Virus record (IMG/VR): IMGVR_UViG_2880378312_000006
DNA from: a virus
Taxonomy: Duplodnaviria > Heunggongvirae > Uroviricota > Caudoviricetes
Length of the DNA stretch: 64,000 nucleotides
Strand: one strand, 5' to 3'
Shown piece by piece: positions 54,001-60,000 of this stretch (the first letter of the stretch is position 1; each line of letters begins with the position of its first letter). Made by a program: the position numbers.

Positions 54001-57000
54001 ATTACGCGTTATTGTGGCGTGAAGTATCTGCCATAGCTATTCAAAATGATTCACCCATGGAGATTAAACCGGCTGATAAATGACTCTGCACTTCGGTTTA
54101 TCCTTCAGCCAGCGCTGGGTTTCCCGGCCTTTGTGGATAATGTAGTTGTCCTCGAGCAGCGTGATGGTTTTCGTCCGACAGTATGTAGCTTTAAGCCGCT
54201 TCAGCAGTCTGATGAACAGCGCCGAACTTTTGCTGTTGGCGCCCACACAGCTGACTTAACCTGTCCCGCTGTGCAGCGCTACGTCCAGAGAATATTTTTC
54301 ATTTTGTTCCGGCGTGACCCCTCGTTTTTGCTTCCCGAGCAGTTTCCAGTCCGCACCGATTTTGGGATTAAGATGGATAAATACTTCATCTTCATAAAAG
54401 ACCGGATGCTCTGTGCTGCATTCGTCCAGTGCGTTATGGATTGTTGCCATCTTTTTATCTTTAGGCGGGGCACGGATACGTAGAGTTGGCGCAGCCCTTC
54501 GCCACACAAGCCCCACAGACGACAACCAGCGGCGAATGGTTCCAGCATGTAACAGGCAGCCGGTTATCTCATTGATTTTTATTGTCAGCAGTTCTGTACT
54601 CCAGCGTGAATAATTGTAGCCAAAGTCGCGAGTGAATATTTTACCTGTTCACGTAATAGTGTGTAGATATGCGCAAACGGCCAGCGGCGGGCTCGCTCGG
54701 CAGGTAATGATTTCAGTCCCTCAACACCCGACTGTGTGAACTAGTTAATCCAGCGCCCAACAGAGGAACGGGCGCAGCATAGTGTGCGGGCAACGTCGCT
54801 GACACGGTCGCCCCGGTGCAGCATCAGCATGGCTGTCAGCCTTTTATGGATGGCTTTCTGTATTAGGCGTCGTTCGTCACGGGAAATTGGTGGTATGATC
54901 GACATTGCTCAGTCCGGTTGGTGATTTGTATTGATTTGGCGATTGATCAGATCGCACAATCGGGTTGAGTTCCCTCTAAATGATCTACTATTCTGCGCAG
55001 CTATTTAGTGAGTATATATTTTATGCTTATAAATTAGATTAAAATAATCCTACAATTATTCTGATGGAGTATTGCTGTGGAGGATGGCTTTTTGTTAATT
55101 ATCGAAAAGTAAGATATATGCTTTAGGGATAAAATTATGCCATTTTCATTTAATTTGTCTTCTGGAAATTACTTGTCAACACAAGATGTTGAAGTTTTAC
55201 AACGTGCGACCAGAGATCATCAAATGGAAAGACTCACAATAGGAGAAAGATCGTTTTCTGTTCGCTATCAGAGTGCTATGGACGCTTTTATTGTAGATCC
55301 TGTTCAAGGGGAACTATATTCGGGTTTAAGCCATACAGAACTAGCCGATATCATTAGATTGGCTGATTCTGTTGAAAATCAATTGAATGGAGGCAATTCA
55401 TTTCTTGATGTATTCAGTACATATATGGGGCAGGTTATTTCTGAATTTATGCATAGTAATGATAACAGAATTGAATTGTTACAGCGGCGATTACATTCAT
55501 GTTCATTTTTAGTTAATATTGAAGAAATGTCTTACATAGATGAAGCATTACAGTGCCCGATTACGCTGGCAATTCCTCAACGAGGTGTTTTTTTAAGAAA
55601 TGCTGAAGGTTCCAGAGTATGTAGTTTATATGATGAAATGGCTCTTTCTCGTATAATTAATGATGGGATGCATCACCCACTAAGCAGAGAGCCAATAACA
55701 TTATCAATGCTTGTGGCCAGAGAGCAGTGTGAGTTTGATTGCAGTATCGGTCACTTTACGGTGAGGAGTGATTGTTATTCAGTGTAGACTCGGTACACGA
55801 TTTTGTGTGAAGAGACTCTTATTAAAAGTTAGCATCAAAGCGGTCATCAAACTTGATAATAAAGTGACTCATTGCTATTCGCTGGTCCTTAAGGGATGTA
55901 TCGTGAACTGAATAGCAAGTAGCCACCGTCCTGATTTCAACGCATTATCAGGCGCTTCTGAAGCGGCATACCTGCATGACAGGATGAGTGCAAAGGGGCG
56001 CTGTTACGATAATGCTAGGGCGGAAAGTTTCTTCCACTCACTAAAAGTCGAATGCATTTACGGCTAATATTTTATGAGTCGGGAAATAATGCAGACGGCT
56101 GTGTTTAATTAGATCTAGTGTGATTACAATCGGTGGTGCCGACACAGTACTTGTGGCTGTCTCAGCACGGAACTGTTTTGAAAAACAGAACCTTGATTAG
56201 GGCTGTGTCCACATTACGTAGGTAGGATCACCCCACAGGCACCACATGTCATGCATGGATTAGGATTGAATGATAAATCGTAAAGAAAACTGCAACACCT
56301 CGCGTGTAGCACCTGGTTAGCGAACTTTCGAAAGTACGAGTATTGTATGATTTCCAGCAGTTATCAATTTTACGTATTAATCAGTGAATCAACAACTCGT
56401 CAGCAGACTCTCTTTGCTGTTGAATTTTTTGGAACGTGTATAGGGCAGAAATTTTTGTTTTGGGACATGGTTGGGACGCCGTAGTACATACGAACTCTGC
56501 CGAATAACGTATGATATTATTTTTTAATCTCTTGGAATACATTATAGAAACAGAATGCTCTTGGGCGATTTTTAGTGATTGTTTAAATAGCCCTGTCATG
56601 CAGTTAAAGTGGCGGGCATCCTCTTCAAGGATGGTGATCCTCAACCGCACCCATTTAGGATGCGACTATTGTGGTAGAACAATGTAAACCATAATTAATC
56701 TGCGTGCGGATACATGCTTCATAGATAGGATATTCTGGTTTGGGTTGTGAATGTGTTGGTCATCGAGTGGACAATAAGGTAAGAGGAGTAACTCCTGCAA
56801 AACAAAAAAAGAGTTCAACAAAATCAATCAGTTAAAAACACGAGAGATCTGTATAAAAAAGCATCGTAAATTCTGTATTTTTCCTTTAAATATAATATGT
56901 TATTGAGTTTTGTAAAATCTACCAGTGTGGTACATGGATATCGATACCACGGCTAAGTATAAATCTGGTGTTACTACCGTGAAAGACTCGGTACGACTGG

Positions 57001-60000
57001 ATCCGTGGGTGTTTATGTTCTCCGCAGGATATCGTTTTTAATTTTCTCTGCAAAACCTCTGCAAAACCCCTCTGCAAAACTGGTCATCAAATGACCAGTT
57101 TTTTCCATTCCTTACCGCGTGCGTCGTTGTAAATATCGATCATTTTTTGATTCGAATGGCCTAGCAAAATTTTGGTATCAACCCCCTGCTCTCTGAACAA
57201 TCGCTCTGATAAAGATCTCTGCTCATGGAAAGAGGGAGGGGTGCCATTAGCACGCCAGTTGTAATCCACAGAATCCCGGGCTTTTTTAAATGCAACGGTT
57301 AATGTTGCTGGCTTAACCATCCCGCCGCGCTTAGCTGTCCCTTTCGCGTGATGGTGGTGCAATAGCCACGGACTAAGAACGCAATCGCGGCAGGATGACA
57401 CCACATCATCCAGGGTGAGATTTAATTTATCGCAACGCAGAGCCAGAGGGATGGCAATCCGGGTTCCTGTTTTTTGCCGTTCGACATGAAGATAACCATC
57501 CCGGATATCCGAAAATTGCATTTTGCAAATATCTGAAAGGCGCTGGCCTGTCATCAGTGCCAGCAGCATACCGCGCTGTAAAAAGTAACCATCCTTTTCC
57601 GCTGCGTTATAAATCATCATCCACTCATCAAAAGTCAGTCGCTGTCTTGATATCCGTACCTGCGGTTTTTTTGCAGATTCTGCAGGGTTAAAGCCTGGCG
57701 GGACATCGCCCGTTTGCTGAGCTTCCCGGAAAACATCGATCAGTACTTTCCTGAAAATTTGTCCCATTCTGTTATGTCCTCTGGCCTTGTACTCTTCCAG
57801 TACTGATACCACATCTTTTACGGTTATGGCATCTAACGGTCTGGTGCCAAAACGTTCATCAAATACCCTGAGAGGGGCCGCTTTCTGTTTCAGCGTGTTG
57901 AGTTTGATCTCGCCGTTTTCATATCTTTCCTGTTGAATTTTTCTGTAATTATTCAGAAAAATGGTAACGGTTGATGAACCGCCGGTATCACTAATAATTT
58001 TCTCCTGCAGACTGAGCATTTGTTCCATTTGCTGCCGGGCAAGACGGCTGTTCGCTTCTGCTGCAATAGTTTCTGCCAGTTTCTGGTCAATACTGCCGAG
58101 ACCGTGATTTTTGCCTGTTATGGGATGCCTGTAACGCCAGTAAACTTTGTTATTTCTTTTGTCAAAATACGGAGATAATCCCGGAACATCGGTTTTATAT
58201 TTTCGCGGGCGCGCCATCTTCCAGTATCCTCTTCAAAGCAGGGTGATCTGTGGCGATCACCTCCGGCTTGTTTACCATTCCGACAAAGCGAGCTTGCGGA
58301 TCCACTCGCCAGCGTCTTCCAACTTTTTTGGGGAGAGGAAATATCATTCCGGCTTTAGCGTATTTACTTAACGTACTCGGAGTAGGGACCGGTTCACTGA
58401 ATTCCTCTTTTGCCCACTCAGTGAGCAGAATAAGTCTTGCCATGAGCGTCGTTCGCTAATCATGGTCGCCGCCACTATAGCTGGTGGGCAACGACCGGGG
58501 TTGAACATTAAAAATCAGCCTGATTCGGGATCAGTTTTTGCCAGATAGCTGAAACGTATTTTGCCTGGTAACGAGCGTCATCCAGCGCATTGTGGCGCTC
58601 ACCTTCGAATGGGATAGCAGTTCTGGCATCGAAGTCTATGGCTTTCCCCAGCTCAACGATTGTGCGTACATCGCGATCGTTGTAGTAACGCCACGGGCAG
58701 GGGATCCCCTGCCGTTCGTATGAACGGCGCAAAATCGTGTTGTCGAAGTTGGCTCCATTTCCCCAGACCTGAACAAAAAATTCACCGGAGTTTTCGTCGA
58801 TAAATTCCCGCAATTGTAACAGTGCATCATCTAACGGGATTTCATCGGTCATAATGGCAGATTGCGCTTCGCGTGATTGCTTAAGCCACCATTTAATGGT
58901 GTCCCGATCAATGACTCCGCCAGCAGTTTCCAGATCGATAGTCTTACTAAATTCCGGTCCCATATCTCCGGTTTGCGGATCGAAAAATATTGCACCTATT
59001 GAGATGATCGGGGCATCAGGATTTTTTCCCATGGTTTCAAGGTCGATCATTAGATGGTCACACGTCCTGCTGGTGGATGTGATAATGCGATGACCGTTCA
59101 CCGTAATTAAGGGATCTGCCGTCTCGCCAGTTTCACTATCGCTGGCGTGGTCCTGAGCGCTGCCAGCATTCTCCTTGTGTGGATGTTCAGCGCCTTCCAT
59201 TTTCTCCGAATCGTCTTCCTGAACTTCAACCAGGTTCTTGTCATCGAATGTTTCCTGGTATGTTGCGTCGCCCATCACCGCGCCACAATCAGGGCAGTTG
59301 CCGCCACTCCTCTGACCGCAGGCGGTGCAGATCTTTTCCGGTTCCTGTTGCACTACTGGTTCAGGTTGTTTCGTTTCTGGCTCGTTTTGTTGCGTATTTG
59401 GGCTGTTCTGTTCCGCTTTCTGGTCGTTCTGTTCCGTTTCTGGCTGATTCTGGTACACAGAATCGCGGGTCTGGATCCCCTTAATCCATTTCGGATCATT
59501 CGGGTCGCTAATCCCTTCAACAAATTCTCCGCGAGAGGCAGCCAGTAATTTGTCTGCATCGACAGGATTTTGGGGCGGAATGTTTTTCCGGGCTTCATGG
59601 AGTTCTGCCCGCAGTTTCTGATATTTCGCATCAACAGAATTTATCTGTGGCTGAGCATCCATCGACTGCGTGTCCTGATTATGTTCAGTTGTATCCGGTT
59701 CCACTGCTTCAGTCGTTGCCTGTTCATCTGCCATTGCGCCAGATGGCTGCGGTTTTTCTTCATCATCCTGTTTTCCTTCTTTTGTTACACGCTGCGGCAT
59801 TGGAGCAGAGGAGCGACCGCAGGCAATATCCACGATTTCTGGATCAGGGTTGGCATGGTCGGTTTCGGTCAGTACTTTGTTCAGATATTCGGTAACACGG
59901 TGGGGAGTAGCCTCGATACCAATTGGTGCTTCTTTCACGGACGCAACCACTATCGCGCGGGAATAATCCAGGTGACCAGGCATGGCGATGAATTTGTCAC

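Follow-up and report, generated by a model that had tools for sequence, protein, structure and literature searches.

Organization of the ydfJ/rspA prophage cluster

The window, which is the whole 64,000-nucleotide stretch of DNA analysed here, corresponds to positions 2516257-2580256 of the record of the O157:H7-type E. coli strain 113. Two mosaic prophages lie in it side by side, and both occupy the ydfJ/rspA locus, not ompW. The left limit of the cluster consists of rspA' and a truncated int', the right limit of dinI-'ydfJ, where the far end of prophage 2 adjoins 'ydfJ. The genuine ompW of the strain, located ~340-390 kb from the cluster, has its own PPompW attL and attR. Positions 6181-41775 of the cluster resemble Sakai Sp12 (98.1% identity), and the part from 60177 to the end of the cluster resembles Sakai Sp11 (99.2-99.6%). 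The 41.8-60.2 kb stretch has no counterpart in Sakai Sp11/Sp12. In this stretch, a phage attachment site with a complete attP structure is buried between the two prophages, beside its cognate int and xis genes (Table 1).

Table 1 Features around the attachment site between the two prophages
Feature	Positions	Strand	Remarks
ykgJ/ecpE-like 97-bp element, 'attB-in-PP_2'	56314..56410	+	PPompW right-end context, outside attP proper
'attB-in-PP_1' GTCATGCAGTTAAAGTGGCGG, 21 bp	56595..56615	+	matched exactly once in the window
P arm of the PPompW-type attP	56793..56922	+	phage DNA left of the core
P-arm copy of CTGCAAAAC	56795..56803	+	candidate Int arm-type site
IHF consensus match AATCAATCAGTTA (WATCAANNNNTTR)	56822..56834	+	P arm, predicted
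ompW' remnant, 41 codons and stop	56916..57041	+	K-12 ompW alignment, Pfam
28-bp identity block CAGTGTGGTACATGGATATCGATACCAC	56923..56950	+	core/crossover region common to attB, attL, attR and the junction
Three direct CTCTGCAAAAC repeats	57046..57080	+	candidate P'1-P'3 Int arm-type sites; exact copies at 57046-56, 57057-67 and 57070-80, with the core motif CTGCAAAAC at 57048, 57059 and 57072
Perfect 12-bp hairpin, 3-nt loop	57076..57102	.	arms 57076-57087 / 57091-57102; T run follows on the + strand
int, PPompW-type tyrosine integrase	57087..58217	-	376 aa
xis, excisionase	58195..58443	-	Pfam Exc, E=1.3e-7

The integrase is identical in 374 of its 376 residues to the integrases at the genuine ompW attL sites of O157 FRIK2455 and O145:H28 PPompW_132418. 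It has the arm-binding N-terminal domain (Pfam Arm-DNA-bind_1, PF09003, 77.7 bits) and the tyrosine-recombinase catalytic domain (Phage_integrase, PF00589) of a lambda-type integrase, and full-length lambda Int structures match it with an E value of 4e-55. The product of xis, annotated as 'excisionase' by PGAP (WP_000113189.1), is identical to the resident PPompW Xis. Positions 56923-58450 as a whole share 99.5% nucleotide identity with the deposited PPompW attL-intE-xisE region. The combination of core, P' arm and int is found in roughly a third of complete E. coli genomes.

The cluster has already been described, and the 121-bp sequence resembling the 3' end of ompW at ~81% identity was named 'attB-in-PP_3' (Nakamura, Ogura, Gotoh, Hayashi 2021, PLoS Pathog, PMC8112680). 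The arrangement is real but largely ordinary. In that account, the 121 bp is regarded as a potential attB, the left end of prophage 2 is set at a 96-bp element, clusters with attB-in-PP_3 are placed at ydfJ or mlrA in O157:H7, and attB-in-PP_1 is the landing site of yecE-type Stx2 phages. The order attB-in-PP_2, attB-in-PP_1 and the 121 bp is the same here as published; the last lies between attB-in-PP_1 and prophage 2's integrase gene in a ydfJ cluster, as does attB-in-PP_3, and attB-in-PP_1 is vacant.

The core, its flanks and the ompW remnant

Positions 56923-57043 align with the 3' end of K-12 ompW with 81.1% identity over 122 bp. The 41-aa translation matches positions 155-195 of the 195 in Pfam OmpW (E=2.4e-13), and in the PGAP annotation 56916-57041 is an OmpW pseudogene 'missing N-terminus'. 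The preliminary description had reported a frame of 46 codons ending like OmpW. The C-terminal similarity holds, but the length does not, only 41 codons and the stop being open: 56901-57041 translates as Y*VL*NLPVWYMD... with two in-frame stops. Its upstream part had also been taken as diverged, whereas the first 28 bp (56923-56950) are identical to ompW, the divergence sets in mid-homology, and unrelated phage DNA lies further left.

A four-way alignment of the window, attB, attL and attR clarifies the parentage of this region. K-12 ompW, attL, attR and the window share the 28-bp block without a difference, and the parentage of the flanks changes on each side of it. To the right of 56950, the sequence is that of the phage side of attL, and 56951-57041 is a phage-borne, diverged substitute for the ompW 3' end, with int beyond. 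To the left of 56923, it is that of the prophage side of the PPompW attR (100%). The P arm has 100% identity with the attR prophage side of O26:H11 11368, and its contiguity with the canonical PPompW right end extends over at least 620 bp. A synthetic chimera of the P arm and the native ompW 3'/yciE sequence matches full-length in 432 genomes, confirming that the left flank is a PPompW right end. Homology among three P-arm lineages (PPompW, phage 204576/SCU-125 and P-EibA) begins exactly at 56793, and the same contiguous P-core-P' with another P-arm lineage is found in the phage record CP025907 and in the commensal strain SCU-125. Since the left flank is a phage P arm, the configuration is P-core-P'. 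As in a lambda-type attP, the core is identical to attB, and both of its flanks are phage DNA; the copy here is thus unrecombined. We consider, with a probability of about 0.85, that the locus holds an intact, unrecombined attP (P arm-core-P' arm) of the ompW-integrating lambdoid PPompW family.

The preliminary description had interpreted the junction as an attL; in such a reading, prophage 2 would have integrated at ompW, and the ompW 5' part would later have been lost via IS elements. The core, the P' arm and the int module are indeed the same as in a genuine attL, and no ompW similarity is found to the left of 56923, as had been stated for the 5' region. However, the left neighbour of the core is an intact, conserved P arm, not IS debris, and the locus is ydfJ/rspA in a genome where the genuine ompW carries a PPompW attL and attR elsewhere. 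The 28-bp core is present once per att-bearing locus; a second core was found neither in the 64-kb window, even at ≤3 mismatches, nor elsewhere in prophage 2 (L003), so that the far end has no attR core, a lack that the preliminary description itself had named as counting against its reading. The absence of a second core and the PPompW P-arm parentage of the left flank led us to reject the attL interpretation, which we regard as very improbable. The suggestion of a composite or tandem junction rather than a simple host boundary is supported.

An assembly artefact or chance similarity is less probable still, to the point of being negligible. Lambdoid prophage clusters are prone to misassembly, but the identical junction occurs in 105 independent genomes among 5426 complete E. 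coli genomes, the variant in SCU-125 and CP025907 is independent, and the statistics of the repeats and hairpin described below are far from chance.

In lysogens, the OmpW gene annotated as intact takes its 3' end from this phage-borne sequence. The attL sites of FRIK2455 and strain 113 encode an OmpW of 212 aa, annotated as intact, whose end is the phage version, and the native ompW 3' end remains at attR as a pseudogene. The replacement alters 7 residues, which are clustered in KYKSGVTTVK. A diverged duplicate completing the ORF of the target gene in lysogens is also the feature of the e14/phage 21-icd type: e14 enters the 3' part of icd with a diverged duplicate and leaves a pseudo-3' fragment at attR (PMC6379469). 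In both systems, integration occurs in the 3' part of a host gene, which stays intact in lysogens because the phage supplies the diverged 3' end. They differ in that the target here is ompW and the duplicate is 121 bp, as against ~163 bp.

Arm-type repeats, IHF match and hairpin

The lambda attP comprises the arm-type sites P1/P2 and P'1-P'3 and the sites for IHF and Xis, with int adjoining the P' arm. At the present locus, the three tandem 11-bp repeats noticed at the outset are exact, whereas 1.26 occurrences of CTCTGCAAAAC at ≤1 mismatch are expected across the whole window. The motif CTGCAAAAC occurs exactly five times in the 64-kb window (0.89 expected), four of them within ~290 bp of the core. 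Three of these are on the P' arm and one is on the P arm, all distinct from the core; the P-arm copy is invariant in 4/4 aligned P arms, and their homology stops at it on the left. Triplets with the same 11/13-bp spacing also occur in E. albertii and in four other genera (Kluyvera at two loci, Raoultella, Enterobacter and another member of Enterobacteriaceae). The Int proteins of these relatives are 99% identical in E. albertii but only 64-68% identical in the others, and across the relatives 26/27 columns of the motif are invariant versus 5/84 of the flanks. The repeats thus behave like Int arm-type sites, as the preliminary description had proposed; they are candidates, judging from the conservation across genera with identical spacing and from the analogy with lambda, whose arm-binding domain type this Int has.

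The likeness to the lambda attP extends to the integrase, homologous over its full length including the arm-binding domain, and to xis upstream of int. In both, three direct repeats on the P' arm abut the int stop, a P-arm copy lies ~125 bp out, and the P arm, rich in A/T, contains a match to the IHF consensus. The IHF consensus is matched eight times in the window (2.67 expected), with just one strict match in the P arm, within a block that the P-arm lineages have conserved. Sites for Xis were not identified at the attP. The arm motif CTGCAAAAC, in contrast, is unrelated to that of lambda, and a single P-arm copy was found. The core here lies inside a host ORF, and ~95 bp of replacement coding sequence precedes the P' sites. 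The candidate P' arm sites are accordingly ~100-130 bp from the core, while those of lambda are nearer.

Inside the perfect 12-bp hairpin, also recognized in the preliminary description, are the stop codon of int (57087-57089) and its last four codons (KLVI). The folding scores are z=-4.9 for the + strand and z=-3.7 for the - strand. The hairpin fits a predicted bidirectional terminator for ompW (+) and int (-), a proposal resting on its conservation in relatives, on the strand that folds there and on analogy. In one relative whose target is not ompW (L019), it folds only in the int sense (-10.7 vs -0.8 kcal/mol). In two relatives where int is 1.5 kb off (L016 and L020), the hairpin remains beside the ompW end, and its folding on the ompW-sense strand is no weaker than on the other. 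It went undetected by the built-in terminator scan, probably because the scan lengthens the stem into the T run, and no Rfam family matches it.

The hairpin had been likened to sib. In lambda, sib lies across attP from int and is removed by integration, and its retroregulation depends on an RNase III-sensitive structure formed only by read-through transcripts. The present hairpin shares with sib/tI a position downstream of int, where it could end int transcripts, and only a simple hairpin is predicted. However, its place is not beyond attP: it overlaps the int stop and is situated between int and the core, on the core's int side. Integration therefore never parts it from int, and it stays with int in every configuration and also supplies the reconstituted ompW with its 3' end.

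By analogy with lambda, e14 and phage 21, this type of attP would work at ompW in the normal way. Int would bridge the CTGCAAAAC arm sites (one P and three P') and the core, probably assisted by an IHF-type bend in the P arm, and strand exchange would occur inside the 28-bp block, which is common with the ompW codons for VWYMDIDT. Because the cut would fall within ompW, the phage carries the diverged last ~30 ompW codons and the terminator hairpin, by which a lysogen would keep a complete, chimeric OmpW. The int transcript would end at the same hairpin on the other strand. A circularised PPompW attP was detected by PCR and sequenced in O145:H28, and the arm-type repeats, the IHF match and the terminator do not appear in the available portion of that account (PMC8112680). 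Our description further differs from that account in placing the 121 bp within a complete P-core-P' beside a cognate PPompW integrase and in limiting the exchange to the first 28 bp of the 121.

Origin of the cluster and its consequences

In the published account, prophage 2 is a 'prophage-in-prophage' that entered a resident ydfJ prophage via the 96-bp attB-in-PP_2, carrying the 121 bp as host-derived attB cargo, and this 'attB-in-PP_3' is a potential landing pad for PPompW phages (PMC8112680). Prophage 2 is indeed flanked by a 97-bp direct repeat with 81% identity, and another PPompW Int could in principle use the 121 bp. However, the only integrase that prophage 2 has shares 99.5% identity with ompW-specific integrases, and both cognate arms flank the 121 bp, which makes it a full attP and not a bare attB. 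Neither 97-bp copy resembles a recombinant joint. The left copy is 81.4% identical to the far one, which lies at the far end of prophage 2 between nleG and dinI (L003 47825-47921); the left one is 100% identical to the solitary O26 PPompW copy, and the far one is 100% identical to the Sakai Sp11 copy. Sakai Sp11/Sp12 lacks the EEL-plus-attP stretch, and no left-type copy is present in the Sakai region compared. Integration into the 121 bp has, according to the account, not been observed (PMC8112680). We therefore regard the published route as unlikely.

The Sp12-Sp11 tandem of Sakai at ydfJ likewise has a P-core-P' phage-phage junction between lambdoid prophages. Its middle junction is, however, of the ydfJ type, consisting of dinI, the ydfJ core and a degraded int that has no nucleotide match to the ompW-type int. 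An ompW-type attP at the ydfJ locus cannot have originated by simple tandem integration there. Most likely, a PPompW segment bearing P-core-P' recombined homologously into an Sp12-like/Sp11-like tandem. The captured segment would comprise the right-end effector locus, attP, int, xis and the 5' part of exo, and its donor may have been a circular or tandem PPompW-type genome. More than one route would fit: the Sp9-, Sp11- and Sp12-type late regions are 98-99% identical, too alike for the left crossover to be located.

No partner site in direct orientation is present within the cluster, and the attP copy here cannot excise prophage 2. The identification of the ompW-like sequence as a full attP accompanied by its cognate integrase, and not as a stray piece of host DNA or an attL, explains why prophage 2 cannot excise alone. 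The full-attP reading reveals no new kind of system, but it shows annotators the true prophage boundaries and supplies, for an integrase very common in E. coli, a testable attP of ~310 bp whose arm motif is CTGCAAAAC.

Such clusters bear the EHEC type III effector loci nleA, nleG and espM1, hold Stx phage landing sites and underlie large inversions among O157:H7 genomes. It is possible, though we hold this tentatively, that what was named 'attB-in-PP_3' is in fact a complete attP, perhaps an active one, with consequences for both the origin of the clusters and their inversion or stacking. If so, the clusters at ydfJ, and also those at mlrA, would owe their formation to a circular or tandem PPompW module captured by homologous recombination, and site-specific integration at the 96-bp element would not be how the O157:H7 clusters arose. 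Given expression of the resident PPompW Int/Xis, the internal attP could recombine with the inverted ompW attL/attR, and it could also recombine with an incoming PPompW. Such recombination would lead to ompW-ydfJ inversions of the chromosome or to the stacking of more prophages.

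Identity of the junction between the two prophages

The window is identical to positions 2516257-2580256 of E. coli strain 113 (NZ_CP028680.1), which comes from cattle and belongs to an O157:H7 strain series. The gene order in the annotated record (table) places the double prophage at the ydfJ/rspA locus, the position of Qin in K-12, and not at ompW. The rspA′ remnant lies directly after ynfA and the remainder of rspA is missing; by comparison with the K-12 gene order, so is rspB. A large portal-like ORF (26162-28747) has self-matches offset by 162 bp at 27689-28281, suggesting an internal tandem repeat. 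The genuine ompW gene of strain 113, approximately 340-390 kb from the cluster, is occupied by its own prophage. This resident member of PPompW, the lambdoid prophages integrated in ompW, spans 2912382-2963868 (L013 and L014). It lacks the nleA/nleG/espM1 effector locus and carries a frameshifted DUF1076 gene, a frameshifted DUF4765 gene and a transposase remnant at its right end. Among the regions examined, the nleA/espM1 locus is seen solely in the ydfJ cluster.

Features of the cluster, the junction and the resident prophage (window positions unless an accession is given)
Feature	Position	Content	Basis
Cluster left boundary	1-750	first 87 bp of rspA fused to truncated, frameshifted int′ remnant	record annotation
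Prophage 1, right part		nleA ... ISEc8 ... nleG, espM1, IS630′, NleG/DUF1076, IS3′ (effector locus)	record annotation
attB-in-PP_2	56314-56410	96-bp element of Nakamura et al. 2021	
attB-in-PP_1	56595-56615	intact, unoccupied copy of 21-bp GTCATGCAGTTAAAGTGGCGG	
P-arm motif	56795-56803	CTGCAAAAC	
IHF match	56822-56834	perfect match to consensus	
Core	56923-56950	28 bp, CAGTGTGGTACATGGATATCGATACCAC	four-way alignment
Phage copy of ompW 3′ end	56951-57041	91 bp, diverged	
Triple repeat	57046-56, 57057-67, 57070-80	three exact copies of CTCTGCAAAAC	
Hairpin	57076-87 / 57091-102	perfect 12-bp inverted repeat	
int stop codon	57087-89		
After prophage 1		ompW′ fragment, then int, xis, exo, remainder of prophage 2	record annotation
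Prophage 2, far end		three nleG genes, dinI, ′ydfJ, ydfI	record annotation
Resident prophage at genuine ompW, strain 113	attL 2963230-2963868; attR 2912382-2912507		NZ_CP028680.1

The junction was aligned, with the ompW stop codon as the anchor, with K-12 ompW (attB), the ompW-int sequence of FRIK2455 (attL) and the prophage-yciE sequence of O26:H11 11368 (attR). Up to 56922, the window matches the prophage side of attR at 100% identity and bears no relation to ompW. The core is identical in all four sequences. Right of 56950, the window agrees with attL, carrying the ompW 3′ end in its phage form, and departs from both attB and attR. As judged from this alignment, the junction is a P-core-P′ configuration, namely an attP and not an attL. 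Since attL and attR switch parentage at the two edges of the 28-bp block, the exchange is, on the same comparison, confined to this block. The preliminary description had regarded the junction as an attL, but its left flank is the prophage side of attR, and no matching core lies at the far end of prophage 2, an absence that the description itself named as telling against its reading. Its idea of a composite junction holds. No second core copy is found in the window, allowing up to 3 mismatches, or elsewhere in prophage 2, and an attL/attR pairing of prophage 2 was rejected because the core is single in both.

A synthetic chimera of window 56300-56922 and the native K-12 ompW 3′/yciE sequence is present as one full-length piece in 432 genomes, which confirms the left flank as the canonical right end of prophages integrated in ompW. 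On the other side, 56923-58450 is 99.5% identical to deposited PPompW attL-intE-xisE records. The contiguous junction occurs in 105 of 5426 complete E. coli genomes. The same contiguous P-core-P′ is found in the phage 204576 record (CP025907) and in commensal SCU-125, both with another P-arm lineage. The SCU-125 copy (L102 7001-7365) is an independent chromosomal one with a phage-204576-type P arm, the canonical PPompW integrase and no effector locus, and in its core G is replaced by C at the site corresponding to 56928. An IMG/VR scan with Int returned 80 loci, most of which are prophage calls cut 3 bp past the int stop; five include the P arm and two include attL, and all of these are close to identical with E. 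coli sequences.

Origin of the cluster and the published model

The cluster is 98.1% identical to Sakai Sp12 over 6181-41775 and 99.2-99.6% identical to Sakai Sp11 from 60177 to the end. Sakai Sp11/Sp12 have no counterpart of the segment at 41.8-60.2 kb, in which the PPompW-type effector locus, attP, int, xis and the 5′ part of exo are located. Unlike that of the window, the middle junction in Sakai is of the ydfJ type, with dinI, the ydfJ core and a degraded int. Sakai Sp9/Sp10 were rejected as the counterpart, since the Sakai annotation places Sp12/Sp11 at ydfJ. An ompW-type attP at the ydfJ locus cannot result from tandem integration there; it requires a donor that already had P joined to P′. 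Such a donor would be a circular or tandem PPompW-type genome, a segment of which most likely then entered the Sp12/Sp11 tandem by homologous recombination. The left crossover of the inserted segment could not be placed, because the late regions of the Sp9-type, Sp12-type and resident PPompW prophages are 98-99% identical.

The junction is also present in FRIK2455, where the left prophage, however, begins at the genuine ompW attL; the two strains therefore differ by an inversion. Both strains retain int_a at attL and int_b at the junction; Int-mediated exchange was therefore rejected as the cause of the difference, and the breakpoints are, from these sequences, inside the prophage bodies.

Exactly these ydfJ clusters of O157:H7, in the same strain series, are described by Nakamura et al. 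2021 (PMC8112680). That paper names three elements, the 21-bp attB-in-PP_1, the 96-bp attB-in-PP_2 and a 121-bp ompW-like "attB-in-PP_3" adjoining int. It presents GTCATGCAGTTAAAGTGGCGG as the site at which yecE-type Stx2 phages land within prophages, states that integration into the 121 bp was never seen, and proposes the 96-bp element as the place where the second prophage integrated. However, each of the two 97-bp copies is 100% identical to a native single-prophage copy (O26 PPompW and Sakai Sp11, respectively) and neither resembles a recombinant joint. The 121 bp is flanked by both cognate arms with the cognate integrase beside it. The junction itself had already been described, and the present analysis, which reads it as attP, is a refinement of the published description that differs on interpretation.

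The ompW 3′ end and joints at other targets

The C-terminal likeness to OmpW noticed earlier is borne out by 81.1% identity to the K-12 ompW 3′ end over 122 bp and by a Pfam OmpW match of the translation (E=2.4e-13); PGAP labels the fragment as an OmpW pseudogene without the N-terminus. The 46-codon frame, taken from 56901, is interrupted by two stops, and the open part is only 56916-57041 (41 codons). In lysogens, the 91-bp phage copy completes a 212-aa OmpW annotated by PGAP as intact, while the native 3′ end persists as a pseudogene at attR. The same logic of a phage-supplied 3′ end of the target gene is found for e14 in icd (PMC6379469). The chimeric OmpW of PPompW lysogens (L005 11360-11998; NZ_CP028680.1 2963230-2963868) has KYKSGVTTVK in place of NYKLGGAQQH near the C-terminus and is annotated as normal OmpW (WP_000737224.1). 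The ykgJ-like fragment annotated by PGAP between yciC and ompW is not similar to the 96-bp ykgJ/ecpE-like element by BLAST (threshold 1e-8).

In E. albertii NBRC 107761 (L015 ~3629-4050), rlmC takes the place of ompW next to the same core, P′ arm and int (99% identical), in the context potI-ybjO-rlmC′, giving an RlmC′-OmpW′ chimeric ORF. The sequence at the joint, ...CAACTG/CCAGTG/TGGTAC, suggests that the phage integrated at a secondary site and that the crossover took place at the left edge of the 28-bp block. In E. coli ABU 83972 (NC_017631.1 ~1166355; H206, H209), the core, P′ arm and int abut the fimbrial usher gene sfaF/focD in place of the ompW 5′ part, which may be another off-target insertion or a rearrangement.

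Candidate arm-type repeats and the hairpin at the int stop

Only 2 of the 376 integrase residues differ from those of bona fide PPompW integrases, and the protein has lambda arm-binding and catalytic domains. The triple 11-bp repeat is exact, as first described. The motif within it, CTGCAAAAC, occurs five times in the 64 kb (0.89 expected); four of these surround the core, of which the P′ arm has three and the P arm one. The PPompW, phage 204576/SCU-125 and P-EibA lineages of the P arm are homologous from the P-arm copy to the core and unrelated further left, and the copy itself is invariant across these three independent lineages. With identical 11/13-bp spacing, the triplet recurs in E. albertii, whose Int is 99% identical, and also in Kluyvera, Raoultella, Enterobacter and another Enterobacteriaceae, for which Int identity is only 64-68%; at one such locus, L019, the target is not ompW. 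In the triplet alignment, 26 of 27 motif columns are invariant versus 5 of 84 flank columns. Given the arm-binding domain and the counts and conservation of the motif, the repeats are best read as candidate arm-type Int sites, in line with the initial suggestion. The IHF match lies in a conserved P-arm block. TGGTCATCGAGTG at 56757-56769, which ends 26 bp before the P-arm motif, copies the left arm and loop of the hairpin (57081-57093) at 85%; as the other P-arm lineages do not share it, the resemblance is probably due to chance.

The perfect 12-bp hairpin is also as first described, with the int stop codon and the last four int codons (KLVI) inside it. The hairpin was missed by the built-in promoter/terminator scan and was folded directly instead; the fold is stable on both strands (z-scores -4.9 and -3.7). 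Scanned against Rfam (E<=1), 56000-58600 matched no known RNA family, the one hit (NRON) being spurious. The hairpin is located between the core and int, so that phage, prophage and tandem arrangements all leave it attached to int. The sib-like element of the preliminary description is excluded, because sib-type logic needs separation from int on integration.

Comparative folding shows that the stem is perfect where ompW and int both abut the hairpin. At L019, where the target has its own terminator, it folds on the int-sense strand only (-10.7 versus -0.8 kcal/mol). At L016 (Kluyvera georgiana) and L020 (Enterobacter bugandensis), approximately 1.5 kb of cargo lies between int and the hairpin; the triple repeat and hairpin are still directly 3′ of the ompW stop. 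The hairpin keeps to the ompW end, and its fold on the ompW-sense strand is at least as good. This pattern fits a predicted two-way terminator for ompW and int.
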